Notes: a model not told the origin generated them from the letters alone. A stretch of 35,796 bases of DNA from Chloroflexota bacterium (GCA_016875925.1 VGOO01000003.1:1-35796), one strand, 5' to 3'. Positions 6,253 to 29,686 are shown, counted from the first letter of the stretch. Numbers and translations: made by a program.

Positions 6253-6289
6253 ACAACAGCACAAACAAGAATACCCATACACTTGACTA

Positions 6290-6318
6290 TCGACAATTGT
6301 CCCGTGTAGCACTATAAT
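6290..6318 (+). promoter_or_regulatory. Putative sigma70 promoter
   Basis: TCGACA (6290-6295), 17-bp spacer, TATAAT (6313-6318). Confidence 0.6.
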
Positions 6319-6332
6319 TGTTTGTTAGAGAG

Positions 6333-8489: not shown

Positions 8490-8548
8490 CCCCATAACCT
8501 GTCTGGCCTGACAAATAATTCCACTTCCCAATCATAACTCTAACAACG

Positions 8549-11500
8549 ATGCGCAGATTTAAAACAGGGTTACTTCACAAACCCGATAGAATTCACCGAA
8601 AGAGGCAGGTTCTTAAACCCGCCAGCCATCTCCAACAGCTCGTACTAACCTTGGCTTTATTCATAGCTGTCTGCCTTAGCCTCTTTCCTGCTTCAAACTC
8701 AGCCCAGGCTGACACTCTAAAGTGGACCGTGGTTGACACACCCAGCGCCCAAAATAACATTGTCCTAAGCCCATCCGAGGTCAATGCCATCGCCATCGAC
8801 CGTGATGGCAGAACCTTCTACGCTATCGATATACCCAACGGCAAGGTATTTAAATCAGTCAACAGTGGTATTGGATGGGATAATATCACGACGATTTTGA
8901 CCAACGCCGGCGCCGTTATGCCGGCCTGGCACATAGCACTAGCACCGGATAATCCCAACTTCGTAGCCATAGTAACCAGCACCGCCGCTGCGCCCAGAAG
9001 GGTTTTTGTCTCGGTCGACGGGGGTAACAATTGGCATGACACCAACTGCACAGCCACCAGCAACATCAGCGCACTTGACGTGTCACCAAATCGGAACGGC
9101 TACAACGTCATGGTTGGCACCAGAACCGGAGCCGGCAACGGTGATATACTCACTTACAGAGCCGTAGGCATGGACAACTGGGCATCCCAGGGATTTATCG
9201 GCGATGTTCTGTCAGCCAGGTTTTCGCCCAATTATGCCGCAGATGCTAGCCTGGTAATCGTTGCCGCTAGAGCCACCGGTACCACTATCAATCTTGGCAT
9301 TCACGACCCGGCCGCCAATACCACCAACTGGAGTACCTGGAGCCCAGTAGAGGTGACCACAGGAGGTGCCGGCACTTCACCAACCTCAGCCAACATTATA
9401 AGCGCCGACTTGGAACTCCCCATAGATTTTTCCGGTCAGGCTCCTTCCCTGCGCCGGTTCTACGTCAGCACTGACGCCCCTGTACCCAACGCCGGAATCT
9501 ATCGCTTCGATGATACCGCAGGCTACTTGCTCATGCCTGCCGCATCCACCAAGCGGATTTCCAGCATCGCCTATTTCGGCACCTATGCATCGGGCAAACT
9601 GCTGGCTGGAGAGGTTACAGGCAACCCAAACTCAGCGCAGGTCAATACCTGGTTCACCGATGCTCCTACCACCTGTCCTATCCCCTGCTGGTACCAGGCT
9701 AAGAAGCCACCCACCGGTGCCGCCGGCACAGATGCTTGTGCCAGCTCAGGCTACGGTAACGCCAAAGTCGCCTGGTCAGCCGATGGTTCAGTTGCCTATG
9801 CTGCTACCGCTAGTAGTCTTAGCCTGATTCCTGGTCCCAACTGGCACACTCCATACCTAACAGGAGAGGATTTTGATGAATCGGCATTTTCCATCAGCCG
9901 AGATAACGGTCAACTCTGGAACCAGCTAAGCCTGATAGATACAGGAATCAGTTTCCTCTCAGATGTAGCTGTTTCAGCTAACTCTGATACCCTGTACCTG
10001 GCATCCATCAACAGCCATGCTGGCTGCAACGGCTTTGACAGCCTGTGGCGAGGCCATGGCCAGTCCACCTACAAGACCTGGGAACGCGTGCTGTGCCTAA
10101 CCGCCACCACCAATTATACCCTCGTCAGGATGAACCAGGCTAAACCGCAGTCTGTTTTCCTGGGCATCTGTTCCACTGCTAACCTGTATGCATCGCTAGA
10201 TGGAGGCCAAAGCTGGCAAAATATCTTCCCCGGCATCAACGTAACTGACTTCGCAGTCTCACAGGGCAAGACAGCATTACAAATATACGTGCTGGAAAAC
10301 AACTATGTGTGCAGAGCTGAAGGCAGCTTCCAAGCCTGGCAATGGAAACAGAAAATGGACACCGGATTGGCAACAGGACATTCCATAAACGTCTCGCCCA
10401 ACGGCATCATCACCGTGGGCGATGCTGGCGAGGGTAAGGTAGCCTTCTCTGCAGACAATGGCAACCAGTTCATCAGCCTCCCCCCTGTGCCTGCGCCAGG
10501 TAACATTCACGCTGTCGCCGACCCCAGAATCACAAAATACATCGTCATTTACGCCGGCAGCGACAGCCCTGGTGGCAACATCGACGCATGGGTGGTCGGC
10601 GCCACTCAGAACTGGATAGATATGGGAGCGCCACAGCGAAGTACCTACGGGCTGGCTCAAGGCGGAACGCTATACGGCGCCTGGTCAAAAGGCGGGAACA
10701 GCGGAGTCAACCGCACGCTGAACCCTGAGTCCCTGGCAGCTACCTTTGTAGAATGGGATAACCTCACCGCTGGCCTACCCGCTGGCGTGGTCTTCACCAG
10801 AGAGCCATCATCGCTGAAAATATCAGGAAGCGTTGACCTCTGGGCCATCGATAACCGCCCATACACAGCTAACACCGGCAGACTCTGGGTTTTCTACGAT
10901 TGCTTCGGTGTTGGCCCCCAAATTACAACGCCGCCAAGCCGGGAATTGCTTTTGGCAGCCCCTACCCCAATAGCACCAGCAGCCAATGCCATCATGCCGA
11001 TAGACCATGACAAAGGCACTATCGCCGACATTGTATTCAGATGGAGACATCCTACTCAGGCACGAAAATATGAGCTGCTGGTGGCCAAAGACAAAGAGTT
11101 CAGCCAACTGGTTACTCAGCAGCCCATAATTCCGGACAGCCCGCTCATGCCCACCTGGACGCTATCCGCCAAGGAAATAGCGCTGGAACCCACCTCCACC
11201 TACTACTGGAAAGTGCGAGTCACGCGCGATGCCACCAGCGAACCCGCCGAAGGCCAGTGGTCAGAGATAATACCCTTCTCTATAGCCGCAGCGCCAGAGA
11301 AAGAGCTATCTGCCCCCGGTCCCGAGTTGCTCACGCCAGCCAACGGCGAAACTATGGTTAACCAATCACCATCCTTTACCTGGCAACCAGTAAGCGGGGC
11401 CAATAAATATGAACTCACCCTGGCTAAAGATAGAAACCTGAAACAGCCAATCATTAGAGCCCAGATCTCCGGGACAGCCTATCAATATGATGGGACATTA

Positions 11501-11734
11501 GAACCAGGCAGAAGCTACTCCTGGCAGGTGAAAGTGATTGAGCCCCTCGTCAGCCAGCCCAGTCCCCTGTTCAGCTTCACTGTGTCACCGGAGCCCGCCA
11601 AACCACAGCAGAAAACAGATGGCATACCACAGACGGTAAACATAGTTACCCTGCTCTGGATAGCCATACCACTTCTCATAGTCATAATTGCTATCATCTG
11701 GCTCATCGCAGCACGAAACCGCTCCTACCGCTGA
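8549..11734 (+). CDS. Large Asp-box/FN3-like surface protein, paralog 2
   Basis: Colinear with 2941..6252. Shared blocks include LELPxDFSGQxPSLRR, SGKLLAGEV, TWFTDxPTTCPIPCWY, GYGNAxVAWS, DESAFSxSRxNG and WERVLC. Has a signal peptide and a C-terminal TM helix followed by RNRSYR. Confidence 0.75.
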   Translation: MRRFKTGLLHKPDRIHRKRQVLKPASHLQQLVLTLALFIAVCLSLFPASNSAQADTLKWTVVDTPSAQNNIVLSPSEVNAIAIDRDGRTFYAIDIPNGKVFKSVNSGIGWDNITTILTNAGAVMPAWHIALAPDNPNFVAIVTSTAAAPRRVFVSVDGGNNWHDTNCTATSNISALDVSPNRNGYNVMVGTRTGAGNGDILTYRAVGMDNWASQGFIGDVLSARFSPNYAADASLVIVAARATGTTINLGIHDPAANTTNWSTWSPVEVTTGGAGTSPTSANIISADLELPIDFSGQAPSLRRFYVSTDAPVPNAGIYRFDDTAGYLLMPAASTKRISSIAYFGTYASGKLLAGEVTGNPNSAQVNTWFTDAPTTCPIPCWYQAKKPPTGAAGTDACASSGYGNAKVAWSADGSVAYAATASSLSLIPGPNWHTPYLTGEDFDESAFSISRDNGQLWNQLSLIDTGISFLSDVAVSANSDTLYLASINSHAGCNGFDSLWRGHGQSTYKTWERVLCLTATTNYTLVRMNQAKPQSVFLGICSTANLYASLDGGQSWQNIFPGINVTDFAVSQGKTALQIYVLENNYVCRAEGSFQAWQWKQKMDTGLATGHSINVSPNGIITVGDAGEGKVAFSADNGNQFISLPPVPAPGNIHAVADPRITKYIVIYAGSDSPGGNIDAWVVGATQNWIDMGAPQRSTYGLAQGGTLYGAWSKGGNSGVNRTLNPESLAATFVEWDNLTAGLPAGVVFTREPSSLKISGSVDLWAIDNRPYTANTGRLWVFYDCFGVGPQITTPPSRELLLAAPTPIAPAANAIMPIDHDKGTIADIVFRWRHPTQARKYELLVAKDKEFSQLVTQQPIIPDSPLMPTWTLSAKEIALEPTSTYYWKVRVTRDATSEPAEGQWSEIIPFSIAAAPEKELSAPGPELLTPANGETMVNQSPSFTWQPVSGANKYELTLAKDRNLKQPIIRAQISGTAYQYDGTLEPGRSYSWQVKVIEPLVSQPSPLFSFTVSPEPAKPQQKTDGIPQTVNIVTLLWIAIPLLIVIIAIIWLIAARNRSYR

Positions 11735-11977: not shown

Positions 11978-12835
11978 ATGAGAAATGACGGCTTTGACCA
12001 ATTCAAAGGCTCCCACGACTACGTAACTTCCGAACCGCTGCGAAACGCCGTAAACGTTTCCATAGCGCTGGGAAGACCACTGCTCGTTCGCGGCGAACCG
12101 GGAACTGGTAAGACACTCCTGGCGCACAGCATTGCCAAGGGTCTGGGCAAGAATCTCATAGTATGGAACATAAAATCCACCACCAAGGCTCAGGAAGGCC
12201 TTTACGTTTATGACACTGTACAAAGGTTGAACGATAGCCGCTTCGGCGACAAAGATGTCTCCAACATCAAGCACTATATCAAGCTGGGCAAACTGGGACA
12301 GGCGTTCACCTCCAAAGAACAGGACGTACTCCTCATCGACGAAATCGACAAGGCAGACCTGGAGTTTCCCAATGACTTGCTCAACGAGCTTGACGAAATG
12401 AGCTTCTACATACCAGAGACAAACGAGACCTTCAAGGCAATCCACCGTCCCATAGTAATCATCACCAGCAATGCCGAAAAGGAGCTTCCCGATGCCTTCC
12501 TCAGGCGCTGCATCTTCCACTACATCGAGTTCCCCGACCCATCCCTGATGGAGGAAATAGTCAGAGTGCATTACCCGGACCTAAAGAAAAGCCTGCTGGA
12601 ACAGGCCATGTCCGCCTTCTATTCCCTGCGCCAGATCGACCAGTTCCGCAAGAAACCATCCACCAGCGAGCTGATAGATTGGATCCACGCCATCCTGGCC
12701 AGCGGCATCGGCAGCATAGACCCCGCGAAAGAGTTGCCGTTCCTCAGCACTCTTATCAAGAAGGAATCGGACTATAACCTCTTCATGACTACCTACGCTA
12801 AGAGAAGACAACTCAAAGTATCAGAGACATCTTAG
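11978..12835 (+). CDS. MoxR-family AAA+ ATPase (PA2707/CoxD-like)
   Basis: Walker A GEPGTGKT, Walker B LLIDEIDKADLEFPNDLL, ITSNAEKELPDAFLRRC, KKPSTSELIDW. Confidence 0.92.
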   Translation: MRNDGFDQFKGSHDYVTSEPLRNAVNVSIALGRPLLVRGEPGTGKTLLAHSIAKGLGKNLIVWNIKSTTKAQEGLYVYDTVQRLNDSRFGDKDVSNIKHYIKLGKLGQAFTSKEQDVLLIDEIDKADLEFPNDLLNELDEMSFYIPETNETFKAIHRPIVIITSNAEKELPDAFLRRCIFHYIEFPDPSLMEEIVRVHYPDLKKSLLEQAMSAFYSLRQIDQFRKKPSTSELIDWIHAILASGIGSIDPAKELPFLSTLIKKESDYNLFMTTYAKRRQLKVSETS

Positions 12836-12859: not shown

Positions 12860-14026
12860 ATGTTCACCGATTTCTTCTATACCCTCAGGGAAAGAAGTGT
12901 CCCCGTCTCGCTCACCGAATGGATGGCACTGATGGAGGCACTCTCCAAGGGCTGCATCACCAACTTGGATGAATTCTACTACCTGGCACGCGCCATCCTG
13001 GTGAAAAGCGAAGCCTATTACGACCAGTATGACGTAGCCTTCCAGGAATGCTTCAAGGGCATCCAGGTCCCTCCGGAAATTACGGAACAGATTATGGAGT
13101 GGCTCAAAGACCCGTTCAATCGCTTACAGCTCAGCCCAGCGGAAATGGCCCTATTAGAAACCATGAGCCTCGATGAGCTGATAGAAGAGTTGGAGAAGAG
13201 GCTGCGAGAACAGGACGAGCAACACGATGGCGGAAATTACTGGATAGGCAGAGGCGGCACATCGCCCTTCGGGCATTCAGGCGCCCACCCCGCCGGCTTC
13301 AGGCTCGGAGGCTCTGGAGGTGGCAGGAGCGCCATGAAAATCGCCGAGGAGAGAAAGTTCCGCAACTACCGTCATGACTTAACCCTAGACGTACGCCAGA
13401 TCAAAGTAGCCTTGAGGCAGTTACGACAGTTAAACCGTATTGGTCCTGAAGAGCTAGACCTGGATGGCACCATAGATGCCACCTGCAAGAACGCCGGAGA
13501 ACTGGAGTTTATCTGGAAACGCAGCCGTAAGAACGCGGTGAAGCTGCTACTGCTGATGGACGTGGGAGGCTCAATGGAACCTTTCGCTCACCTCTGCAGC
13601 CTGCTCTTCTCCGCTGCCCATTCCAGCAGCCACTTCAAGGACTTCCAGTATTACTACTTCCACAACTGTGTTTATGATTATCTCTACAAAGATATTGAGC
13701 GCCGCGACAGAATAGGCATCGACCACGTGCTGCGCACCACTGAATCAGATTACAAGGTGGTGCTGGTCGGTGATGCCTGCATGGCATCATCGGAGTTGAT
13801 TGATTCTCTTGGCTCTATCTACTACTACGAACGCAACTACAGGCCAGGCATCGCCAGGCTAAAGCAAATAGCCCAGCACTTCACCCACTGCATCTGGCTC
13901 AATCCAGAATCCAAAAGCTACTGGAACCATCCTACCATCGCCGCCATTGCCAAGGTCTTCCCCATGTACGAGCTTACTATCGAAGGCCTGGGCCAGGCCG
14001 TCAAAAAGCTCATCGTTAAACGCTGA
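12860..14026 (+). CDS. VWA domain protein (CoxE-like partner of the MoxR ATPase)
   Basis: N-terminus MFTDFFYTLR...VPVS, HDGGNYWIGRGGTSPFGHSG, MIDAS-like LLLMDVGGSM, YYFHNC, VGDAxM, WLNP. Confidence 0.88.
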   Translation: MFTDFFYTLRERSVPVSLTEWMALMEALSKGCITNLDEFYYLARAILVKSEAYYDQYDVAFQECFKGIQVPPEITEQIMEWLKDPFNRLQLSPAEMALLETMSLDELIEELEKRLREQDEQHDGGNYWIGRGGTSPFGHSGAHPAGFRLGGSGGGRSAMKIAEERKFRNYRHDLTLDVRQIKVALRQLRQLNRIGPEELDLDGTIDATCKNAGELEFIWKRSRKNAVKLLLLMDVGGSMEPFAHLCSLLFSAAHSSSHFKDFQYYYFHNCVYDYLYKDIERRDRIGIDHVLRTTESDYKVVLVGDACMASSELIDSLGSIYYYERNYRPGIARLKQIAQHFTHCIWLNPESKSYWNHPTIAAIAKVFPMYELTIEGLGQAVKKLIVKR

Positions 14027-14458: not shown

Positions 14459-14486
14459 CAGGATTTTAACATTGGCCTGTTATCAT
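14455..14486 (+). promoter_or_regulatory. Direct-repeat regulator box 2 with extended -10
   Basis: TTAACA (14455), N5, TTAACA (14466), N9, TATCAT (14481) preceded by TGn. Confidence 0.75.
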
Positions 14487-14525
14487 GAGGCTATACTGCA
14501 TATAAAGGAGGTAAGCAAGACGGAA

Positions 14526-14978
14526 ATGTGGCGAAGCAAAAAGTTCATTCTGGTCATGGTTTTGGCTGCTGTACTATTAGTTGGCAGCATCGGCGGCATA
14601 GCCTTTGCTGCTGACAACGGTGATAGCAACCAGCCCAAGGCTCGAAATGGAGCTATGCTGGACAAAGTTTGCGAAATCTACCAGCAAAAGACAGGAGTCG
14701 CTATCGACAAAGAAGTGCTGAAAGAGTCATTTGCCCAGGCCATGAGCGAGATGCGACCTCAGACTTCACCAGCGCGCACCGGGAAGGGCCCCGAAGCCAT
14801 GCAAGACCATCTCAAGAAACTGGTCGACGATGGCAAGATAACCCAGGAACAACTTGATGCGCTTAATAAATGGTGGGAATCAAGGCCTGACGTCCCGCTT
14901 GGCTTCGGCCCTGCCGCAGGTCCCGGTAAATTCCGTGGTATGGGTGGACCGTGTGTCCCACCTCCACCGGCAGAATAG
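14526..14978 (+). CDS. Small secreted helical protein (possible Spy/CpxP-like accessory; function uncertain)
   Basis: SD AAAGGAGG upstream. Signal peptide MWRSKKFILVMVLAAVLLVGSIGGIAFA, motif LKKLVDDGKITQEQLD, Gly/Pro tail. Lies directly upstream of a BaeRS-like pair. Confidence 0.7.
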   Translation: MWRSKKFILVMVLAAVLLVGSIGGIAFAADNGDSNQPKARNGAMLDKVCEIYQQKTGVAIDKEVLKESFAQAMSEMRPQTSPARTGKGPEAMQDHLKKLVDDGKITQEQLDALNKWWESRPDVPLGFGPAAGPGKFRGMGGPCVPPPPAE

Positions 14979-15017: not shown

Positions 15018-15053
15018 AAGAAAAGAGGGGGGAATAAGTCCCCCTCTTTTCTT
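15018..15053 (+). terminator. Intrinsic terminator
   Basis: AAGAAAAGAGGGGGGA, loop ATAAG, TCCCCCTCTTTTCTT. Confidence 0.85.
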
Positions 15054-15092: not shown

Positions 15093-15124
15093 TTAACATT
15101 TACTTAACATTTGCGGTATAACAT
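15093..15124 (+). promoter_or_regulatory. Direct-repeat regulator box 3 with -10-like element (autoregulatory position)
   Basis: TTAACA (15093), N5, TTAACA (15104), N9, TAACAT (15119). Confidence 0.75.
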
Positions 15125-15159
15125 AATAGGAGCCTGCACAATCACAAAGGTATACATAC

Positions 15160-15855
15160 ATGTCAGCTAACAGAGTACTTGTAGTTGATGACGACACCAA
15201 AACGGTGGACTTGGTCAAGCTCTACCTGAACCGAGACGGCTACCGAGTCTTCACCGCTCAGAATGGCATTGAGGCACTACGCTTGGCCAGGGAGAGTCAC
15301 CCCGACCTTATCGTCCTCGACCTTATGTTACCGGGCATTGACGGGCTTGAAATCTGCCGCAGGCTAAGGAACGAATCAGACGTGCCCATAATCATGCTCA
15401 CCGCCAGAACCACTGACGAAGACAAGCTGACAGGCTTGGACATGGGCACAGATGACTATGTAACCAAGCCATTCAGCCCCAAAGAGCTAGCCGCCAGGGT
15501 GCGGACAGTCCTGAGACGTCTCCCCGGAGAACGCGGTCCTAACGAGATCAGACATGGCGACATAGTGGTAAATTTCCCAAGACGGGAAGTATCACTTGCC
15601 GGCAGACCCCTGCACCTTACCACGATTGAATTCAAACTACTGGCAACTATGGCCAAGGAGCCTGGCAGAATTTTCAGCCGTGCCCAGCTTGTAGAAAAGG
15701 CCCTTGGCTACGACTTTGAAGGAAATGACCGAACAATCGATGTGCATATCCTCAACCTTCGCCGAAACCTCGAGCCAGACCCCAAGCGCCCAAAGTATAT
15801 TAAAACCGTGTACGGCGATGGCTACAAACTCGCTGAGATAGCAAATGATACATAG
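15160..15855 (+). CDS. OmpR/PhoB-family response regulator
   Basis: Receiver motifs [29 protein letters not shown]. Winged helix [11 protein letters not shown]...[10 protein letters not shown]. Confidence 0.95.
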
Positions 15856-17257
15856 CTTGCAATTTCGCCTTCTGGCAGCTTTTGCTCTTGTGATTCTAAT
15901 CACTATTAGCAGCATATTCTTCCTTATCAGCCAAGCCACCATAGCAGAAGTTCGCCAATTCGGAGAGAGGTTCGAACGCGCATATACTGGCAAGATGAGA
16001 GCCGACCTATCCCGTTACTACTCCACACAAGGAGGATGGGAAGGCATTCAACCTGTGGTAGAGCAATGGGGCGAATTATATAAGCAACGCATCATAGTAA
16101 CCGATATTACAGGCACGACAATTGCCGATTCCAAGAAAGAGCTAGTAGGCAAACCTTATTCTCCTGATTCACCTGGCATGCTAATACAAAGCCCCCGTAA
16201 GGGAGCAGAAGATACCGGCACTGGTACTGAGGGCTTCGGAAGACTGCTACAACCCCCCTGGGAGCGAGAAACGATAGGCATGCTCTATATTAGCCCGGGG
16301 CTTTTAGCAGATTCAGAGCGAGTTGCCCTGCAAATCATCTACAGCAAAATAGGCCGTTTCTTCCTCTGGGGAGGCTTGATAGCAGTTGGTATCGCTCTGG
16401 CAATAACGTTCTTCATGTCACGACGAATTCTCTCCCCGGTCAGAGCGCTCACCGCCGCTGCTCAAAGCCTGGGACGCGGCGATTTCTCCCAACGGGTACA
16501 AATCAAAGACAAGGGTGAGGTAGGGGAACTTACCAATGCCTTCAACTCCATGGCAAGCGACCTGGAGCGTGCCGAGTCATTGCGACGCAATATGGTAGCA
16601 GATGTAGCCCACGAGCTGAGAACCCCGCTTTCCAACTTGCGCGGCTATCTCGAGGCAGTTCACGACGGGATTATCAAACCAGATGTGGATACCATCCACT
16701 CCCTCAATGAAGAAGCAATGCTGCTATCACGGCTGGTCGACGACCTCCAGGAACTCAGCCTGGTTGAGGCAGACAAAATAAAGCCAACCCGCCAACCCGA
16801 ACAAATAGCTGACCTCATCAAACAGGCGATGGCAACGACACAATCTCAAGCTACAGCAAAGGGTCTATCTTTGACAGCAAACTTGCCTGACAACCTGCCA
16901 CCAGTCGATATCGACCAGCAACGAATCGCTCAGGTTCTGCACAATCTAATAGAAAATGCCATTGCCCACACCTCTGAAGGCGGTACCATTACAATCGATG
17001 CCAGGGAATGCCAGAACTGGGTCCAGGTAAGCGTCACCGACACCGGAGAAGGCATCCCGCCTGAGGACCTGCCTAATATCTTTGAGCGTTTCTACCGCGT
17101 GGACAAGTCCCGAGCCAGAGCCACCGGCGGTACCGGCCTAGGCCTTACCATCGCCAAGCGCTTGGTCGAAGTTCATGGCGGCAAAATCGAAGTTCAAAGC
17201 GAGCTGGGCAAAGGGAGCCGCTTTACGTTTACCATCCCTGTATTTGCCCAATCTTAA
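15845..17257 (+). CDS. HAMP sensor histidine kinase (BaeS-like)
   Basis: Two TM helices, HAMP domain, H-box [35 protein letters not shown]. Overlaps the regulator gene by 11 bp. Confidence 0.95.
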
Positions 17258-17285
17258 CAATTCATTAACAGTTTTCTGCTATGAT
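17254..17285 (+). promoter_or_regulatory. Direct-repeat regulator box 4 with extended -10
   Basis: TTAACA (17254), N5, TTAACA (17265), N9, TATGAT (17280) preceded by TGn. Confidence 0.75.
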
Positions 17286-17320
17286 TAGCAGTCACATATC
17301 TCGACTCCAATTCAACCCGA

Positions 17321-19276
17321 ATGAAAGCCTTACGAATGAATAACAAAACGCTACTGAAAATCATGGCATCGATGATGGCTATCTGCGCCATCATCCCGCT
17401 TGGCATAGGTTGCGTCGCTAAAAAGTCCACGCCAGCACAACCGACACAGACAGTCGCCATACAGCGTGGCAATTTGACAATATCTGTACCGGTAGATGGC
17501 AATTTGGTAATGCCCCAGGCTTTTGACCTCCGTTTCGGCACACCAGGCGATGTCAGGGACGTACTGGTAGAAGAAGGAGACCACGTAAAAGCAGGAGCAA
17601 TACTGGCAATGCTGGACAACACCACGCAGAGATTGGACATCCAATCGGCCAACGCCTCTTTGCAGAGAATCTTAAGCAATCTCTACCAAACCGTGCCACG
17701 TCTGCCCCAATTTCCGAACCAACTTTACGATGTCAACACGGTGACTACGACTACTACTACAACTGTTTGGGATTGGCGTGAAGGGTACGATTCTCTGGGT
17801 AATCCCATAACCGATTCTCCACTTCCTGGCGGGAATCAAGGATACATCGGAGTTCCCAGTACCGTTACCACGACCACGACCAGGACTACTATTAAAGCAA
17901 TACCAAATACTCTCCATTCAGATACCAGTTATCCATTTTACTACCCCAACCACACAGCCTTGATAGCGTTTGCCTGGGCACAAGAAGCGCTCTCCAGAGC
18001 AGATGAACTGTTTCAGTCTAAGAATTACGCCGACGCAGAATCTGAACTATACGTAGCCGCAAATGACCTGGAAACCTGCGCCAAAATAATCGAGGACACC
18101 ATTACTAACCCACAGTCGGGATTAGGCGGCTCAGGACCCCTCCCCGAGCAGGATGACCTGACATTCCTGCTCCAGCAGAACGAACCATTATCTGTAAGCT
18201 TCATCCTGGAATTACAACAACTGGTTGAGCTAATCAAGCAATGCCAGGCAGACATGGAGAAGGTCCGCTCCTTGACCACGGAGGGAAAAAACGACGAGGC
18301 CAAATCCTTATTTGCCACCATCCAGGGCAAGATGAAAGACATAGGCAAGTCAATCCTGAACAACGTCAACTTGATTGAAAAGCGCCACGTAGGCATGGTC
18401 TACGGCAAGAACATATGTCTCTACCTGTACAAAGCCGCTGACGACAGCCTTAATGAAGCATTTGCTGCAATTGAAAAGGGCAGTATCGATTCGCCAGAGT
18501 TCAAAAACAATCTACGCGTGGCCCAGCACCGGATGGCACTCTGCAACGCTGTTTTGGGGAGCAACGACTATGTATTGCAGCATGGCCTCTCTCTGAAAGC
18601 TGAGCACCAATACAAAGTGGACCTGCAGAAATCACTGGTAAACCTTGGAAACAAGCAGGACGATTTCCTAAAAACAATAATACTTGCGCCTTTTGACGGC
18701 ACGGTAGTCAGCGTAGGAGTAAAGAAAAACGACGTCCTATCCGCCCAGGACTATTCCTCCAAGGGCACCATCCAGATTGTTGATACAACGGCTGTCAAAT
18801 TCGAGGGGCTAGTTGACGAAATTGACATCCTGAAAGTTAAAACTGGACAAAAGGCCACCATTACCGTAGATGCCATACCCAATAAAGTATTTACCGGCAT
18901 AGTGTCGTTCATTTCCCCTTACGGTGAGGCAGGCACGTCGAACGTTGTTAAATTTGCTGTGACCATACAGCTTGACCCCACCGATATAGAGCTAAAGGGA
19001 GGTCTCACCGCCACAGCCGATATCGCCATAGAAACTGTTGATAACGTTGTATTGGTACCACTCCGAGCTATAAGCAGCACTGCTCAGGGTGTCTTTGTAA
19101 CCGTCATAGACGAGACAACAGGTCAGACCGAAAAGCGCGAGGTCACCCTCGGTAGGCAAAACTTGCAGTTCGCCGAAGTGTTGTCTGGCCTTGAAGAGGG
19201 GGAGAGAGTAGTGATGGAGGTCAAAATCACCGGAGCACCGGTCGTTCAAGGCTTCCCACGCCCATCAGGAAGATAG
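17321..19276 (+). CDS. Membrane fusion protein / efflux adaptor (MacA/YknX-like lipoprotein) with very long helical insertion, copy 1
   Basis: Lipobox LGIGC. Lipoyl half-motifs GDVRDVLVEEGDHVKAGAILAMLD and IILAPFDGTVVSV are about 350 aa apart. Also VDEIDILKVKTGQKA and EVLSGLEEGERVV. The start may be 17336. Confidence 0.88.
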   Translation: MKALRMNNKTLLKIMASMMAICAIIPLGIGCVAKKSTPAQPTQTVAIQRGNLTISVPVDGNLVMPQAFDLRFGTPGDVRDVLVEEGDHVKAGAILAMLDNTTQRLDIQSANASLQRILSNLYQTVPRLPQFPNQLYDVNTVTTTTTTTVWDWREGYDSLGNPITDSPLPGGNQGYIGVPSTVTTTTTRTTIKAIPNTLHSDTSYPFYYPNHTALIAFAWAQEALSRADELFQSKNYADAESELYVAANDLETCAKIIEDTITNPQSGLGGSGPLPEQDDLTFLLQQNEPLSVSFILELQQLVELIKQCQADMEKVRSLTTEGKNDEAKSLFATIQGKMKDIGKSILNNVNLIEKRHVGMVYGKNICLYLYKAADDSLNEAFAAIEKGSIDSPEFKNNLRVAQHRMALCNAVLGSNDYVLQHGLSLKAEHQYKVDLQKSLVNLGNKQDDFLKTIILAPFDGTVVSVGVKKNDVLSAQDYSSKGTIQIVDTTAVKFEGLVDEIDILKVKTGQKATITVDAIPNKVFTGIVSFISPYGEAGTSNVVKFAVTIQLDPTDIELKGGLTATADIAIETVDNVVLVPLRAISSTAQGVFVTVIDETTGQTEKREVTLGRQNLQFAEVLSGLEEGERVVMEVKITGAPVVQGFPRPSGR

Positions 19277-19281
19277 ATAGC

Positions 19282-20985
19282 ATGATGACAAGAGGAAATA
19301 TTTTCATAGTCGCCATAACGGTAAGTCTGATTTCTCTGCTGTTCAGTGGTTGTGGTAAAAGTGCTGCACCTGTCGGCAAGACCTTCGAAGTAAAAAAAGG
19401 AGACCTGAACATCACCATATCCACCGACGGCTACCTTACGATGCCTAACCAGTTCGACCTCAAGTTTGGGACCACAGGACAGGTCGCCGAAATACTGGTA
19501 GAAGAAGGAGAGCAAGTAAAACAGGGTGCCCTGTTGGCCATGCTCGATAACACATCACAGAAAAACGCAATTAAAACAGCACTGTTTGATATACAGACGG
19601 CAAGGAGCAACATAACACTGGGATGTGGCACAGACCGCATTCCTTACACCTATGCCGACCTGAGCGTGCCCCGCTTAATGAAAGAGGCACAAAGAGACAT
19701 AGACAAGGCTATTGGCTATTTTGAGCAGGGGAACTACAAAGATGCCGGTTACTGGCTGGTCATGACCTACTTCGACGTCGAGGTGTGCGAGGATTTAATC
19801 AAGTCCAGGCCTGATGCTGCTGCGCTGGCCGGGATACAGTCAAATTCAACTTACTATCCGGATATCAACGCCGGCAGCCCTTCGCCTCCACCAGAGTATA
19901 TTGATATGGTCATCTCCTACCTGCAGAATTACCGCGCCAGGCTACTGGATATTTCCCGGCTACTGAAGGCTGGCTCCTACGCAGAAATCAATCCTAAACT
20001 CGAACAAGTGCACCTGGATATGCGTACAGTATCACAACTGGCTGTAAGCACAGTATATAAGAAAGGTAGAAGCATGTTCGAGTACCCTGATACAGCTACC
20101 AGCGCTGACTTCCTCCAGGTCGCTATACGCCAACTACAGGAGTTGGAGAAATACATTGCCCAGGATAATGCCAACCCTGTAGAAGCTGCCAAGAAGCTGT
20201 ATATTGCCAAGGTTAGCCTACTGGTGGGCAAAGATGTCCTGGAAAACCAGACGCGTATCTTCGAGAGCGGAGGCAGCATCAACTGGAAGACATTAGAACA
20301 ATACAACATCGACCTGCAAAGCGCGGAGATGGGTTTATATAAAAACAAGCAGGAAATCATGAAGACAGTCATCATAGCCCCTTCCGACGGCGATGTGGTC
20401 AGCGTTGACCTCAAGAAATCTTATGTCCTCTCCGCACAGGACTACTCAGCGCGAACGGCCATCAAGCTCGTCGATACAAGTACTATCAAATTCCAGGGGA
20501 CAGTAGACGAGATAGATATTGCTAAAGTAAAACCCGGGCAAAAGGCGCGAATAACCATAGATGCCGTGCCTGACAAGACATTCACCGGTACGGTGAAATT
20601 TATCTCCCCATTCGGCACACAGACTGGCAGGGTCATTAAGTTCGCCGTCACCATAGAGATGGACCCCACCGATGTCGAGTTGAGAGGTGGCTTAAGTGCT
20701 ACCGCCGAAATCAGCATATACAACGCCAAAGACGTGTTGCTGGTTCCCGTATCAGTGATTGCCACCACACCGGCAGGACCTGTAGTAGCAGTAGTCAATG
20801 AGGCCACAGGCCAAGTTGAGAGAAGGCGAATTACCATCGGCATGCAGACATTCGAGTTTGCTGAAGTGCTTTCCGGTCTTAAGGAAGGCGAAAAAGTACA
20901 GGTGATAAGCCAGGAAGCCATTAGAAGCCCGTCCGCCACACAGCAGCGTCCGGGTGCGCCAGTACCCATGCGCCTTATCAGATAG
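19282..20985 (+). CDS. Membrane fusion protein / efflux adaptor with long helical insertion, copy 2
   Basis: Lipobox LFSGC. GQVAEILVEEGEQVKQGALLAMLD and VIIAPSDGDVVSV are about 270 aa apart. Also VDEIDIAKVKPGQKA and EVLSGLKEGEKV. Confidence 0.88.
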   Translation: MMTRGNIFIVAITVSLISLLFSGCGKSAAPVGKTFEVKKGDLNITISTDGYLTMPNQFDLKFGTTGQVAEILVEEGEQVKQGALLAMLDNTSQKNAIKTALFDIQTARSNITLGCGTDRIPYTYADLSVPRLMKEAQRDIDKAIGYFEQGNYKDAGYWLVMTYFDVEVCEDLIKSRPDAAALAGIQSNSTYYPDINAGSPSPPPEYIDMVISYLQNYRARLLDISRLLKAGSYAEINPKLEQVHLDMRTVSQLAVSTVYKKGRSMFEYPDTATSADFLQVAIRQLQELEKYIAQDNANPVEAAKKLYIAKVSLLVGKDVLENQTRIFESGGSINWKTLEQYNIDLQSAEMGLYKNKQEIMKTVIIAPSDGDVVSVDLKKSYVLSAQDYSARTAIKLVDTSTIKFQGTVDEIDIAKVKPGQKARITIDAVPDKTFTGTVKFISPFGTQTGRVIKFAVTIEMDPTDVELRGGLSATAEISIYNAKDVLLVPVSVIATTPAGPVVAVVNEATGQVERRRITIGMQTFEFAEVLSGLKEGEKVQVISQEAIRSPSATQQRPGAPVPMRLIR

Positions 20986-21125
20986 CCAAATTGCCCAGTA
21001 TGATGTGAGCGACACAATGGAACCACAGAAGAGAACGCCAAAAAAGTCCCCCCCATCTTTGCGAGTCCTGATGCAACCCGGACAAAGCGAACTCTATACC
21101 ACCGCATCTCTAGAGACCAGCGAAA

Positions 21126-21794
21126 ATGATTGAAATTGAAAAAATAAGCAAGATATACGATTTAGGCTCGGTAAAGGTAACCGCCATTGACAACATATCT
21201 CTCCGTTGCCATCAGGGAGAGTTCATCTCCATCATGGGAGCCTCCGGCTCCGGAAAATCCACTGTGATGAACATACTTGGCTGCCTTGATAGCCCAACAC
21301 ACGGAAGCTACCGTCTGGATGACCAGGATGTCAGCAAGCTTAACGACGACCAACTAGCCAAGATAAGAAACAGCAAGATAGGCTTCATCTTCCAGTCTTA
21401 TAACCTCTTGCCTAAAACCACAGCATTGGCTAACGTGCAATTACCGCTAATCTACGCAGGCACAGACCACAGAAAACAGCGCGCCATAGAAGCCCTGGAG
21501 GCTGTGGGTATAAGCAAAAGAGCGCATCACCGCCCATCTGAGATGTCAGGCGGGGAACAGCAACGTGTGGCCATCGCTCGTGCCTTAGTCAATAACCCAT
21601 CGATAATCCTGGCTGACGAACCGACCGGAAACCTCGATACTACAACGAGTCATAGCATAATGTCCATTCTATGCGAGCTAAATAGAAAAGGTATTACCAT
21701 AGTCATCGTAACCCACGAGGAAGATATAGCAGCATTCACGCACAGGACTATCTATCTGAGGGACGGGAAAATCACCGACGAGAAAAGAAGATGA
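21126..21794 (+). CDS. ABC transporter ATP-binding protein (MacB/LolD-type)
   Basis: [49 protein letters not shown]. Confidence 0.95.
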
Positions 21795-22996
21795 ACATCT
21801 GGGAGAGCATCAAAACGGCCTGGCAGTCTATATTCGCCAATAAAATGCGCTCATCACTCACCATGCTCGGCATCGTTATCGGCGTCAGCGCAGTAGTCCT
21901 GCTGGTGGCGCTTGGCCAGGGATTCCAGGTCAACATGAAGACGACTTTCGAGAATATGGGCGCCAGTGCCCTCTACATATCAAGCTCGACAGACAGGGCG
22001 GTAAAAAGCGTGCGGGAGCTAACACTTGAAGACGCCCAGGCTTTGGCAGACCCAAAGATGGCCCCATCGATAGCCGTGGTCTCTCCCACGCTAAGCAAGA
22101 GCGTCAGTATCCAGTATGGCAACAACAACGTAACCACGCAGGGAATAGGTGTCACACCTGTGATAACACAGATAAGGAACTATACCATGGACAAAGGTCG
22201 GTTCATCACCGAGCAAGATAACGCAACCAGGCAGAATGTGGTAGTTCTGGGCTACCAGACTGCCCTTGACCTGTTCGGCAGCGAGTCCCCAATAGGCAAG
22301 AGCCTGCGCATTGATGGCATCAAGTTTCAGGTTATAGGCACAATCCAAAGGCTCGGTGGATTCGGAGGCGATGGCTACGCACTGATGCCACTCACCACCA
22401 TGCAATCTAAACTGGTGGGTGGCAACAGCATCGGCCAGATTGCCGTAAAGGCCGTCAGCCCCGACCAAGTGGACTCCGCAATCGCCGAGATGACCAGCAT
22501 CATAAGAGCCAGGCATTACATCAGACCCGGGGCACCAGACGACTTCACCATCAGGGACATGCGCGAGACGCTGGAGAGCATGCAGCAGACATTGGCGAGC
22601 TTTTCCATCTTCTTGGGTAGCGTTGGCGCTATCTCGCTCCTCGTTGGTGGCATCGGCATCATGAACATCATGCTGGTCTCGGTAACAGAGCGCACCCGTG
22701 AAATAGGTATACGCAAAGCCATTGGAGCCAGGCGCCGTGACATTCTGCTGCAGTTCCTTATCGAAGCCGCCGCCCTCAGCTTCACAGGCGGCTTGATAGG
22801 CCTACTCCTGGGGCTGGCTGGCTCATCGCTAATGCGCAACATTCCCATGGGCAACATGACCATCAGTGCAATTATTTCGCCAACCATTGTGATTATTGCT
22901 CTTGCCGTATCGATAGGAACAGGGCTAATATCAGGAACTTACCCAGCTTCCCGCGCCGCCAGGCTCGACCCCATCGAATCCCTGCGTCACGAGTAA
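21791..22996 (+). CDS. MacB-type ABC transporter permease
   Basis: NKMRSSLTMLGIVIGV, large extracytoplasmic domain, GGIGIMNIMLVSVTERTREIGIRKAIGA, YPASRAARLDPIESLRHE. ATGA overlap with the ATPase gene. Confidence 0.95.
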   Translation: MNIWESIKTAWQSIFANKMRSSLTMLGIVIGVSAVVLLVALGQGFQVNMKTTFENMGASALYISSSTDRAVKSVRELTLEDAQALADPKMAPSIAVVSPTLSKSVSIQYGNNNVTTQGIGVTPVITQIRNYTMDKGRFITEQDNATRQNVVVLGYQTALDLFGSESPIGKSLRIDGIKFQVIGTIQRLGGFGGDGYALMPLTTMQSKLVGGNSIGQIAVKAVSPDQVDSAIAEMTSIIRARHYIRPGAPDDFTIRDMRETLESMQQTLASFSIFLGSVGAISLLVGGIGIMNIMLVSVTERTREIGIRKAIGARRRDILLQFLIEAAALSFTGGLIGLLLGLAGSSLMRNIPMGNMTISAIISPTIVIIALAVSIGTGLISGTYPASRAARLDPIESLRHE

Positions 22997-23015: not shown

Positions 23016-23044
23016 TAGACAGCCGAGAGGCTTAAGTCTATAAT
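23016..23044 (+). promoter_or_regulatory. Putative sigma70 promoter of hpt (possibly leaderless transcript)
   Basis: TAGACA (23016-23021), 17-bp spacer, TATAAT (23039-23044). GTG start at 23051 has no SD. Confidence 0.65.
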
Positions 23045-26896: not shown

Positions 26897-27541
26897 TTAA
26901 AGGCTGATAATGCCCCTCTTCAGCGCCTCAGTCACCGCACCTGTACGGTCATTCACGCCCAGCTTCTGGAATATGTTGCTGATATGTGTTTTCACCGTAC
27001 TCTGGGAGATGTGGAGCGCAGCGCCTATCTCCTTGTTGGCAGCGCCTTTAGCCATAAGCTGCAATACCTCCAGCTCACGTTCGGAAAGCTCGTCGCCCGA
27101 AGGAGCCCTGCGGGACAATTCCGTCAAACGATCCAGTACCTTGGATGCTACTACCGGCTGGATTAGTGATTCACCAAGATGAACAGCCCTTATCGCCTTG
27201 AACAAATCTTCCCTGGGGGCATCTTTCAGTAGATACGCCCTGGCACCAGCCGCAATTCCCCGAAAGATGTAATCATCATCGCTATAAGTAGTCAATATCA
27301 CAAATTTTGTATCCGGTTTGGCTTCTCTTATCTGGTTCATAGCCTCTACACCATCCATCTCTGGCATGCGCAAATCCATGAGAACCACGTCAGGGCTAAG
27401 TTCTTTGGCCTTGCTGACTGCCTCTGTCCCGTTCTCCGCCTCCCCCACTACCACAAAGTCGCGTTCACGCTTTAGCATAGACAAAAGCCCTTCCCGTACA
27501 TACGGATGGTCATCGGCAATAAGTATTTTTATAGGCTCCAC
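26897..27541 (-). CDS. NarL/LuxR-family response regulator
   Basis: ILIADDHPYVREGL, PDVVLMDLRMP, HTH region LSERELEVLQLMAKGAANKEI...TVKTHISNIFQKLGV. Confidence 0.95.
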   Translation of the reverse strand: MEPIKILIADDHPYVREGLLSMLKRERDFVVVGEAENGTEAVSKAKELSPDVVLMDLRMPEMDGVEAMNQIREAKPDTKFVILTTYSDDDYIFRGIAAGARAYLLKDAPREDLFKAIRAVHLGESLIQPVVASKVLDRLTELSRRAPSGDELSERELEVLQLMAKGAANKEIGAALHISQSTVKTHISNIFQKLGVNDRTGAVTEALKRGIISL

Positions 27542-29649
27542 GATTGCACCTCCTGTCCAACAGGCAACACCACCCTGACCAACGTTCCTTTTCTCTTTGT
27601 GCTCTGTAATTCAAAAGTACCACCTAGACCTCTGGCACGCTCTTGCATACTGGTAAGCCCAAACCTGCGTTCTTTCCTAGTAGTTTCACCGATAGTCTCT
27701 GGCTTAAAGCCGACTCCGTCATCGCGCACGGTCAATGTTACCAACATGTCATCGAAACCCAGACTAACCTCCACTAAAGTAGCCCTGGCATGTTTCCTCA
27801 CGTTGGTCAATGCCTCCTGACAGATACGCAAGAGACCAGCCTCCAAATCTGGGGATAGGTCTCGTCGTTCTCCTGTTATAGCAAAACGAGCATCAATACC
27901 CGTCTCGTGAGCAAACCTGACCACTTCCTGCTTCAATGCGTCGGCAAGCTTGACCTTCTCCAGAGCCTGCGGGCGCAAATTCCAAACTGAACGCCGCGCT
28001 TCAGCAAGGCTCTTACGCGCCAGACTCGCTGCCTGCGCAATATGCCGCTCCACATCCTTGCTACCATGGCTCAGCGATTGTTCTGCAGCCTCTAGCTGAA
28101 GAATGATGCCGGTGAAACCCTGAGCCAAGGTATCATGGATTTCTCTCGCCATGCGGTTGCGCTCTTCCATCACTGCAATCTGACGCGTTTCAGCATAAAG
28201 ACGAGCATTCTCTATAGCCACTGCAAGCTGGTCAGCAATAGTCTGGGCGGTAAACACATCAGCCTCACCAAAGGCGTCTAACTCCGTGCTCTCTATATCA
28301 AGCACACCCAATATCTCATTGCCTATCTTCACCGCCACCGCCAACTCAGCCCTGATATCGCTTAATTCTTTGACCGGTCGATACCTTGGCTCCTTACTAA
28401 CATCGTTGGCCAACAGCACATCCCCAGTTTTGGCCACCCAACCCACAACCCCTTCCTCATCCACTTCCAGCGGCACGCTTACTGGAATCACTCCTCCCTG
28501 TCCACTAACGCTAAGCGCCTTAAGCGCTAACTTCCCAGACCCCGGCTCAAACAAAAAGATATTCACATTATGGTAATGGAAAGTCTCACGAAGCATGTTG
28601 CCAACGTAAGGTATCAGCTCATCCAGCTCTACGATGGAACTGATTCGGCGGCTAACCTCATTTATGGTGCGCAGTTGTTCAGCACGCTGCCGCTCCTGCC
28701 TGGTCCGCTCCTCTACCTTCTGCTCCAAGTTGCTGTAAGATTCCTTTAATGCCCTGGCCATAGCATTGAATTGTTCGGATAGTTGTTGAAGCTCATCGCC
28801 AGTCTCCACTTTGATGCTATAGTCCAGTTGTCCTTTCCCTATGACTTCTGTGCCTCTGGTGAGTGCTAAAAGCGGCCGTGTGATTGCCCTAGAAAGCAAG
28901 AAGATGACCACAGCAGCCAGGAGAATCACGCCAATGCCAACCGCAAAGAAGATCAATTGCGCCTTTTCCATCTGCTTCTCGATGTACTCGGTAGTAGCCG
29001 CCACCGTGGCAGCTATCTCGCGCTCTGCATCCTCAGCCGGCGCTAGGTACTCGTCAGTATAGGTAGCAGCAGCTACTACAAGATTTGTACCCGGAACAGA
29101 GATGCAGTGCATATACTTTCGCCTGGGGTTTTTCTGCTCATCTTCGCCCCAGGTGTAGTAGCCGGAAGCGTCGCCATGGATACCACGCTCCACGATGCTT
29201 AAGAACTGAGAAGGCTCACCGGCTATTTTGTTCAATTGGGTACCCACCATCTTAGGGTCCGGATGGAAAACCACCCTCAGCGTATCATCGTAGACCATGG
29301 TGTGGCCTGTTTGCCCCACGCTCTGCACGGCGATATCCCTCAACTCCTTATCATCCGCCAGCCGAGACATGTCCAGATTTGGATGGAATTGCAGATAAAT
29401 ATCCATCTCAGCAGCAATAAACAGTGCCTTGCGTTGTATTAATGTCCTTGCCATTCCCTCCAAAGCCGAAAAACTGGTACGCACCACGCTTTCGCCCATG
29501 CGAGCAGTATTATCCCTGGCACGATAGCCCACTTCATAAATGCTACGCGTAGCTATAGCACTGATAACACCCAGGGAAATGAGCATCAGCGCTAGGAAGG
29601 GAATGAGAATCTTGCCCCTCAGCCCGATTGCTATTTTACGCTTGGGCAT
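27529..29649 (-). CDS. Sensor histidine kinase (TM, Cache-like, TM, HAMP, GAF, HisKA_3, HATPase)
   Basis: QSVGQTGHTMVYD...FHPDP (Cache-like), GDELQQLSEQFNAMA (HAMP), GAF region ending QLAVAIENARLY, EERNRMAREIHDTLAQ, QEALTNVRKHA, DDGVGF. Start is 29649 or 29676. Confidence 0.92.
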   Translation of the reverse strand: MPKRKIAIGLRGKILIPFLALMLISLGVISAIATRSIYEVGYRARDNTARMGESVVRTSFSALEGMARTLIQRKALFIAAEMDIYLQFHPNLDMSRLADDKELRDIAVQSVGQTGHTMVYDDTLRVVFHPDPKMVGTQLNKIAGEPSQFLSIVERGIHGDASGYYTWGEDEQKNPRRKYMHCISVPGTNLVVAAATYTDEYLAPAEDAEREIAATVAATTEYIEKQMEKAQLIFFAVGIGVILLAAVVIFLLSRAITRPLLALTRGTEVIGKGQLDYSIKVETGDELQQLSEQFNAMARALKESYSNLEQKVEERTRQERQRAEQLRTINEVSRRISSIVELDELIPYVGNMLRETFHYHNVNIFLFEPGSGKLALKALSVSGQGGVIPVSVPLEVDEEGVVGWVAKTGDVLLANDVSKEPRYRPVKELSDIRAELAVAVKIGNEILGVLDIESTELDAFGEADVFTAQTIADQLAVAIENARLYAETRQIAVMEERNRMAREIHDTLAQGFTGIILQLEAAEQSLSHGSKDVERHIAQAASLARKSLAEARRSVWNLRPQALEKVKLADALKQEVVRFAHETGIDARFAITGERRDLSPDLEAGLLRICQEALTNVRKHARATLVEVSLGFDDMLVTLTVRDDGVGFKPETIGETTRKERRFGLTSMQERARGLGGTFELQSTKRKGTLVRVVLPVGQEVQSWSL

Positions 29650-29686
29650 CTGTAGCCCCCATTTCTCATTGTTCATGAGCCTGCTA

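Follow-up and report, generated by a model that had tools for sequence, protein, structure and literature searches.

A MacAB-like exporter with two paralogous adaptors that carry a family-specific helical domain in uncultured Dehalococcoidia

Adaptor proteins of bacterial efflux pumps are understood mainly as a bridge from the inner-membrane pump to TolC, and their retention in cells that have no outer membrane is an open question. This question is raised by a locus from an uncultured freshwater lineage of the Dehalococcoidia, found in a bacterium from a lake (Chloroflexota bacterium, GCA_016875925.1 VGOO01000003.1:1-35796). The whole stretch of DNA that was analysed, called the window below, is 35,796 nucleotides (nt) long, and all coordinates are positions in it. 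Four genes at 17321-22996, all running in one direction, encode two adaptors, an ATP-binding cassette (ABC) ATPase and a permease. What kind of machine do these proteins form, and what might its adaptors do? The system is a MacAB-like pump with a TriAB-like adaptor pair, and it is close to certain that the locus encodes an exporter with two adaptors. Each adaptor contains a helical domain that is specific to one bacterial family and of a new kind, on an otherwise known MacB-type machine.

The permease (401 amino acids (aa), 21791-22996, + strand) consists of a MacB_PCD extracytoplasmic domain (E 1.1e-44 in Pfam) and an FtsX C-terminal domain (E 1.4e-24). Among solved structures, MacB (5lil_A) is its closest relative, with E 1e-59 over residues 4-400; Spr0695 (5xu1_M) is matched with E 8.4e-47, and the match to LolC (E 8e-09) is much weaker than that to MacB. 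The ATPase is a separate polypeptide of 222 aa (21126-21794, +) with an ABC_tran domain, and its nearest NCBIfam models are MacB and LolD. The locus thus contains both components of a MacB-type (type VII) ABC transporter, an FtsX-type permease with a large extracytoplasmic domain and a LolD/MacB-type ATPase.

The two genes that precede the ATPase encode membrane-fusion proteins, adaptor 1 (MFP1, 651 aa, 17321-19276, +) and its paralogue adaptor 2 (MFP2, 567 aa, 19282-20985, +). Both have the layout of the adaptor family, in which a lipoyl domain is split by a helical insertion and is followed by a beta-barrel and a membrane-proximal domain. The N-terminal half of the lipoyl domain (Biotin_lipoyl_2 in Pfam) occupies residues 73-99 of adaptor 1 and 66-89 of adaptor 2. 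The HlyD_3/HlyD_D23/CusB_dom_1 matches begin only at residues 451 and 345, respectively, with HlyD_3 scores of 50.3 and 53.5 against a cut-off of 22.2. In NCBIfam, both proteins belong to the adaptor family RND_mfp (TIGR01730; 135.6 and 138.6 bits, cut-off 94.9), and both stay far below the cut-off of 342 bits of the MacA equivalog NF008606 (97.7 and 112.2 bits). MacA is the nearest sequence neighbour of both in the Protein Data Bank (PDB), and their public annotation is 'efflux RND transporter periplasmic adaptor subunit'. In Foldseek, both whole-chain models align to MacA, AcrA, MexA and TMexC with E-values down to 2e-16 (9qgy_G, adaptor 2), the TM-scores being low because of the extra domain. 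The two adaptors are 37% identical to each other over 448 aa (E 2e-81 in BLASTP), and 47% identical over the N-terminal 92 aa. An earlier reading of this DNA (the original prediction), made from the sequence alone, had described a MacAB-like exporter with two paralogous lipoprotein adaptors, one ATPase, one permease and no TolC, and the Pfam, NCBIfam and genome searches bear this out.

The lipoprotein character of the adaptors, for which the original prediction had given lengths of 651 and 567 aa, is likewise found in both open reading frames (ORFs). A lipobox-like motif ends at Cys31 in adaptor 1 and at Cys24 in adaptor 2, and it is present in 44 of the 49 adaptor-1 orthologues and in all 51 adaptor-2 orthologues. 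Lgt and LspA are both encoded in the window's genome. The pair of peptides by which the two copies had originally been compared does align in BLASTP, and the motif VLSAQDYS is common to both.

Residues E231, Y276 and T293 of MacA are described as conserved contacts of the six-membered beta-barrel ring, which are also kept in YknX and Spr0693 (PMC8277102). Counted by hand on HMMER alignments, their counterparts are E500, F545 and T563 in adaptor 1, and E410 and S472 in adaptor 2, where A455 is aligned with Y276 and F454 lies one position off. The counterparts are invariant or nearly so in the orthologue alignments. The VLSAQDYS motif aligns to the lipoyl loop of MacA that contains Gln209 and is described as the gating ring (PMC5768738). 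The glutamine of this loop is invariant among the adaptor-2 orthologues and not among the adaptor-1 orthologues. Each adaptor keeps a MacA-like ring-forming core made of the lipoyl, beta-barrel and membrane-proximal domains.

The lipoyl halves are separated by 353 residues in adaptor 1 (residues 100-452, 17618-18676, +) and by 275 residues in adaptor 2 (residues 88-362, 19543-20367, +), and the insert occupies the position of the MacA hairpin tip. The separations of about 350 and 270 aa that had been read from the sequence are thus right as distances, but the insert of adaptor 1 consists of a core of about 275 aa and a variable loop. Among orthologues, the insert measures 277-396 aa in adaptor 1 and 275-289 aa in adaptor 2; adaptor 1 owes its greater length to a Thr/Pro-rich loop on the same core, and several orthologues lack this loop. 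The loop (residues ~125-204) varies widely in sequence and length among orthologues, with a mean top-residue frequency of 0.29. Its Thr-rich segment (residues 134-195, 17720-17905, +) is modelled by AlphaFold2 (AF2) as a long beta-hairpin with low to medium confidence, and it may be O-glycosylated or may be a spacer loop. Within the segment, the threonine runs TTTTTTT and TTTTT flank a short Pro/Gly-rich stretch.

Aligned with hhalign, the two inserts match over 271 columns with a probability of 99.95% (E 5.3e-38). As they are homologous along their whole length, the insert is older than the duplication that gave rise to the two adaptors. The insert columns are almost as conserved as those of the adaptor core, and each paralogue has its own strongly conserved insert motifs.

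The fold of the insert was modelled with AF2 from the full-length adaptors, using alignments of 49 (adaptor 1) and 51 (adaptor 2) rows. Nine helices are found between the lipoyl halves of adaptor 1 and eight between those of adaptor 2. In both models, an outer helix leads into three helical hairpins, from which a second outer helix returns; in adaptor 1, the variable loop follows the first outer helix. The three hairpin units that had been proposed for each insert are therefore present in the predicted secondary structure of both proteins. The helical part of adaptor 1 is predicted confidently, with a block mean of the predicted local distance difference test (pLDDT) of 83-94 for residues 210-350. 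Neither model contains the single antiparallel two-helix coiled-coil hairpin that is typical of the family, although not universal in it.

The models match four-helix bundles instead. With VIA-align, a search independent of Foldseek, hairpins 1 and 2 of adaptor 1 (residues 207-352) superimpose on the four-helix bundle 6w6x_A with a Z score of 16.0 and a root-mean-square deviation of 1.9 Å over 124 aligned residues, and residues 122-261 of adaptor 2 match the same bundle with a Z score of 13.8. The outer helices of adaptor 2 together with its hairpin 3 (range 86-365) match the four-helix bundles 1yo7_B (single-chain ROP, Z 13.1, 117 aligned) and 1x8z_A (Z 12.9). Talin, vinculin and FAT-domain structures are also among the matches. 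The aligned ranges suggest that each insert may be composed of two stacked four-helix bundles with no long coiled-coil hairpin. The proximal bundle would be formed by the two canonical hairpin helices and hairpin 3, and the distal bundle by hairpins 1 and 2. The concern, raised with the original prediction, that the inserts might model as ordinary long coiled-coil hairpins of known families is thus answered, with moderate confidence, by models that resemble four-helix bundles.

Hairpin 3 (residues 357-415, 18389-18565, +, in adaptor 1; residues 266-321, 20077-20244, +, in adaptor 2) is the best conserved of the three, with a mean top-residue frequency of 0.79 in adaptor 1 and 0.84 in adaptor 2. 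It has no profile similarity to hairpin 1 or 2 in a test for internal repeats. Hairpins 1 and 2 share a 'G-x-Y-x-x-A' turn motif and a weak profile similarity (probability 71.6-92.7%, E 3.5e-05 to 4.3e-07, from very short profiles), which is suggestive, and only that, of an internal duplication.

How rare is this domain? No Pfam family matches either insert above its cut-off, the sub-threshold scores being 18.9 bits for DUF5667 (cut-off 27) and 16.1 bits for PMEI (cut-off 29). Profile searches of the inserts against PDB sequences gave nothing credible (best E-values 0.38 and 0.002). The match with E 0.002, a poxvirus uncoating factor, was taken as chance. The adaptor-1 insert has no match of at least 0.9 in the ESM Atlas, where the best hits, an unnamed cluster (0.84) and an LcnD-like helical-bundle cluster (0.77), are leads only. 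When the profile of the adaptor-2 insert was searched exhaustively against 1.84 billion cluster representatives, 72 proteins were found at E<=0.001, 53 at 1e-10 and 27 at 1e-30, and nearly all of the 72 are adaptor-length proteins or fragments. The insert is present in 6 of 401 genomes sampled across the phylum, namely the window's own genome and all five genomes of its family; the remaining 395, including six from other families of the same order, have none. In these other families, single adaptors of about 365-457 aa are encoded beside an ATPase and a permease of the same type. When 185,579 species genomes were scanned with a pattern, 30 loci were confirmed, all in metagenome-assembled genomes (MAGs) labelled Dehalococcoidia, Dehalococcoidales, Chloroflexi, Chloroflexia or Chloroflexota. 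A literature search, which excluded most subscription journals and supplements, found no published description of the insert, the paired adaptors or a bundle-type adaptor domain in Dehalococcoidia.

The envelope in which the pump works can be described from the gene content of the genomes searched. The OEP/TolC family (PF02321) has no match in the window's own genome (completeness 82.74%, contamination 5.13%). Among the relatives, it has none in 25 high-quality genomes and one in 41 genomes overall, a 114-aa frame located at the edge of a contig, in an 89% complete genome. A control search with the same family gave matches in 7 of 14 reference genomes. The claim that an outer-membrane factor is missing, originally made for the window, also holds in these searches of the genome and of its relatives, apart from this fragment. 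The transpeptidase domain of penicillin-binding proteins (PBP; PF00905) and FtsW/RodA (PF01098) have no matches in any of the five family genomes, four of which are 97-99% complete, whereas all 10 bacterial controls were matched in both searches. The premise that the original prediction had made about the envelope therefore holds at the level of genes in five of five family genomes. This absence agrees with the loss of peptidoglycan synthesis before the radiation of the Dehalococcoidales, as described in PMC10284905, where the Chloroflexota are also described as monoderm and S-layers are reported for cultivated Dehalococcoidaceae.

Frequent loss or decay of one copy in relatives had been named as a finding that would speak against the original prediction. 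Two of the 30 loci from the pattern scan begin inside adaptor 2, which leaves 28 that can be assessed. An adaptor gene lies immediately upstream of adaptor 2 in all 28, even where identity to the window's proteins is 35-40%, and the ATPase and the permease come after the adaptor pair wherever the contig continues. Fragmented adaptor ORFs occur in two of the 28 (L068 and L069); in L068, the ATPase and the permease are fragmented too, which indicates assembly errors. Neither copy is commonly lost, and the two distinct paralogues are encoded together and both retained, as in TriAB.

A quick maximum-likelihood tree was calculated from 68 rows, with fragments shorter than 530 aa dropped except for four short outgroups. 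The insert-bearing adaptors form one clade, supported by 100 in the Shimodaira-Hasegawa-like approximate likelihood-ratio test (SH-aLRT), with single-adaptor forms at its base. The adaptors in the first position (24 rows) and those in the second position (25 rows) form two clades, each with an SH-aLRT support of 100, and the branching of one mirrors that of the other. Three more divergent pairs (L018-L020) form separate small groups. The tree fits one old duplication, after which both copies would have been kept. One of the single-adaptor systems is located in the window's own genome (C6:3420-7142, L023), where a 606-aa adaptor with the same insert is accompanied by an ATPase and a MacB-type permease. 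This genome has five MacB_PCD matches, and up to 17 adaptor matches are found per family genome, showing that the adaptor family has expanded in the lineage. In one locus (L064, from a MAG labelled Chloroflexia), the pair, the ATPase and the permease are followed by another first-type adaptor (671 aa) and by a second-type adaptor cut by the contig end, which looks like a tandem duplication of the whole module.

The possible contact between the two adaptors was predicted for the adaptor-1 insert together with the adaptor-2 insert, each with its own alignment, and for three control pairs. The median ipSAE of the insert pair is 0.69 (0.62, 0.79 and 0.69 in the individual runs), and the best of the three controls reaches 0.00. 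The runs agree in at least 27% of their contacts, and the pLDDT of the partners is at least 62. In calibration, this score was reached by 58 of 80 solved complexes and by 2 of 110 mismatched pairs, counts that hold only roughly here because the alignments were self-supplied. The confident contacts are located in hairpin 3 of each adaptor. In the listed residue pairs, helix a of each adaptor lies antiparallel to helix b of its partner, so that an intermolecular four-helix bundle would form with both proteins pointing in the same direction from the membrane. The interface is modestly enriched in conserved columns: in adaptor 1, 12 of 29 interface positions and 57 of the 217 remaining insert positions are at least 90% conserved, and the counts for adaptor 2 are 16 of 30 and 104 of 241, respectively. 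The prediction supports a contact between the inserts and does not tell a hetero-oligomer from a homo-oligomer.

The known systems put these findings in perspective. MacAB-TolC of E. coli and Aggregatibacter (PDB 5nik, 9qgy, 4dk0 and 5lil) has the same MacB_PCD and FtsX permease, and its adaptor is the nearest PDB neighbour of both adaptors described here, which have retained its beta-barrel ring residues and its lipoyl gating-loop motif. Here, by contrast, the ATPase and the permease are encoded by distinct genes and are accompanied by a pair of adaptors, not by a single one. In place of the two-helix hairpin, each adaptor has a domain of about 275 aa whose model consists of two four-helix bundles, and the search of the window's own genome for PF02321 yielded no cognate TolC-type factor. 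Spr0693-0694-0695 of Streptococcus pneumoniae and YknWXYZ of Bacillus also have split ATPase and permease genes in a cell without an outer membrane, and Spr0695 is a clear relative of the permease. Their MacA-like adaptor is thought to form a tube leading off the membrane; for Spr0693, a hexameric nanotube in an assembly about 154 Å tall is described (PMC5768738). In these systems, however, a single adaptor bears an ordinary two-helix hairpin (a 56 Å alpha-barrel in Spr0693) and the hosts are walled with peptidoglycan, whereas here there are two bundle-domain adaptors in genomes in which no wall-synthesis genes were found. In TriABC-OpmH of Pseudomonas aeruginosa (PDB 6vej), the operon contains two neighbouring paralogous adaptor genes, as does the present one. 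TriA and TriB share 36% identity, close to the 37% of the present pair, and the accepted Tri model has three heterodimers, 3+3 (PMC13328181). Unlike the type VII ABC transporter of this locus, for which no outer-membrane factor was found, the Tri transporter is a proton-driven pump of the resistance-nodulation-division (RND) type that requires one, and the hairpins of its adaptors are normal.

That the helical domain of adaptors is variable in evolution is evident from CusB, which has a three-helix bundle, and BesA, which has no hairpin. Both are among the structural matches of the adaptors, but both lack a domain of about 275 aa with three additional hairpins, and the insert has no sequence match to them.

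On balance, we favour the following picture, in which the locus encodes a MacB-type (mechanotransmission) export or detoxification pump with two-adaptor heterodimers that form a TolC-independent tower. To judge by adjacency, the pump would probably be controlled by the two-component system encoded directly upstream, which consists of an OmpR-type response regulator (15160-15855, +; Response_reg and Trans_reg_C) and a sensor histidine kinase (15845-17257, +; HAMP, HisKA and HATPase_c), the two genes overlapping by 11 nt. In at least 12 of the 30 related loci, genes for a response regulator and/or a histidine kinase immediately precede those for the adaptors. If the models are right, adaptors 1 and 2 would pair as heterodimers through their hairpin-3 surfaces. 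By analogy with TriA and TriB, three heterodimers would then probably sit on the permease dimer, held by the conserved beta-barrel and lipoyl contacts. The assembly would be an extracytoplasmic tower that leads the substrate off the membrane without TolC. If the analogy with MacAB, Spr0693-5 and YknXYZ is valid, the pump probably removes an amphipathic toxic compound or peptide from the outer leaflet.

Several points weigh against this picture. The AF2 models are of moderate quality (mean pLDDT 62.0 and 65.0, predicted template modelling score 0.39 and 0.48 for adaptors 1 and 2, respectively) and were made from shallow alignments, and chance arrangements of helices in a model can give Z scores close to the 13-16 obtained for the bundles. 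The complex test passes close cousins of true partners, so that paralogues might score equally as homodimers, and its own alignments were small. The predicted contact is of a closed, two-fold type, and a ring of six members would not arise from it alone. Any two genes that are linked and vertically inherited should give mirrored trees, and the tree alone shows no physical interaction. Single-adaptor operons, including that on C6, carry the same insert, so the insert does not need a hetero-partner. There is no substrate gene within the operon, and the window's genome is incomplete and contaminated to the extent given above. The hetero-oligomer of the original prediction is therefore upheld by the co-retention of the pair in 28 of 28 loci and by the predicted contact (0.69 against 0.00), and is weakened by the single-adaptor operons; with all this considered, it appears reasonably probable that the two adaptors assemble together.

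Suppose, on the other hand, that the adaptors do not mix, and that each forms its own homo-oligomer, the two serving the same ABC transporter alternately for different substrate ranges or conditions. Adaptors from single-adaptor operons, which have the same insert, are placed basally in the tree, from which it follows that the homo-oligomeric form is probably ancestral, and the solved MacA-type adaptors, including Spr0693 and YknX, are homo-hexamers (PMC8277102, PMC5768738). The complex test, being unable to separate cousins from true partners, leaves room for such an arrangement. We nevertheless consider it unlikely, as the pair is adjacent in every assessable locus even at 35-40% identity, each paralogue has strongly conserved insert motifs of its own, the hetero contact scores far above its controls, and the two-adaptor pump TriABC requires both of its adaptors (PMC13328181). 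At the opposite end stands an extended form of the original proposal, a hetero-hexameric, TolC-independent exit tower in which the proximal bundles zip neighbouring adaptors together and the distal bundles replace the outer-membrane factor by docking to, or crossing, the S-layer. This we regard as distinctly unlikely; if it were true, the tower would represent an undescribed kind of duct, self-contained and crossing the envelope.

The bundles could also be a docking or force-transmitting platform that has no duct and passes the motion of the permease to an S-layer component, a surface protein or a lipoprotein during assembly or remodelling of the envelope. Two-component systems encoded next to a transporter are typical of inducible detoxification modules, which speaks against such a platform. 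Efflux-type MacB, and not LolC or FtsX, is the nearest relative of the permease, the MacA ring residues and the motif of the gating loop are retained in the adaptors, and the operon has no conserved partner gene. These observations make the platform very doubtful, even though the MacB family includes the non-efflux mechanotransmitters FtsEX and LolCDE (PMC5768738) and NCBIfam reports sub-threshold LolC/FtsX similarity. Four-helix bundles are, moreover, common protein-binding modules, as the talin, vinculin and FAT-domain matches illustrate; three large upstream ORFs, one of them (6318-8489) with He_PIG Ig repeats, may encode surface proteins, and a small secreted protein is a recurrent neighbour. 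Finally, the machine could be dedicated to the secretion of an endogenous peptide, lipid or glycolipid, like DevBCA or the bacteriocin exporters, and not be a defence pump. Sub-threshold likeness in NCBIfam to the adaptors DevB and DarC and to the ATPases DevA, DarD and those of the bacteriocin type points in this direction, as does the presence of several such systems per family genome, with the five MacB_PCD matches in the window's own. The DevB/DarC-type scores are far below their cut-offs, however, and no precursor or biosynthetic gene lies in or beside the operon, the neighbours being purine salvage genes and the two-component system, so that dedicated secretion seems highly improbable.

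The heterodimeric, TolC-independent pump favoured here is of interest for structure and evolution, without direct relevance to medicine, and it does not overturn current understanding. In a lineage in which no TolC, PBP or FtsW/RodA genes were found, the helical domain has nevertheless been enlarged, the adaptor duplicated, both copies constrained and the systems multiplied per genome. The structure of the pair would show what role an adaptor tower has when there is nothing to dock to, and whether TriAB-like heterodimeric adaptor units arose independently on an ABC pump.

The surroundings of the module are as follows. A small protein of 168 aa with a TTG start and an N-terminal hydrophobic signal or anchor is encoded at 14472-14978 (+). 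Its homologues are recurrent neighbours of the module in relatives: they adjoin the two-component system or the adaptors in L012, L014, L017, L027, L044-046, L054, L056-059 and L068. The protein matches no Pfam or NCBIfam family above cut-off. Its motif 'KITQEQLDAL' recalls the LTXXQ motif of the envelope-stress proteins CpxP and Spy, a resemblance that we presume from the motif and that no family match backs. Consensus matches mark a terminator-like hairpin downstream of the small-protein gene (15027-15045), a promoter-like site upstream of the response-regulator gene (15099-15127) and a strong promoter-like site directly past the permease gene (23016-23044). Together, the three matches fit, but do not prove, a single transcription unit spanning roughly 15130-22996. 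The DNA is present in lake-water metagenome runs, and no RNA run was listed as containing the operon. Adaptor 2 and the ATPase gene are 140 nt apart (20985-21126), a longer gap than in most relatives, and an antisense ORF of 221 aa (20442-21107, -), which overlaps the end of adaptor 2, is probably spurious.

Farther upstream, three large successive ORFs of 1103, 723 and 1061 aa occupy 2941-11734 (+). The middle one is that with the He_PIG Ig-like repeats, and the other two have no Pfam family above cut-off; the three may encode surface or S-layer-associated proteins. They are followed by an AAA ATPase (11978-12835) and a VWA protein (12860-14026). The genes downstream of the permease belong to purine salvage, and a second two-component system, made of a LuxR-type response regulator and a Cache-HAMP-GAF-HisKA_3 kinase, is found at 26897-29748 (-).

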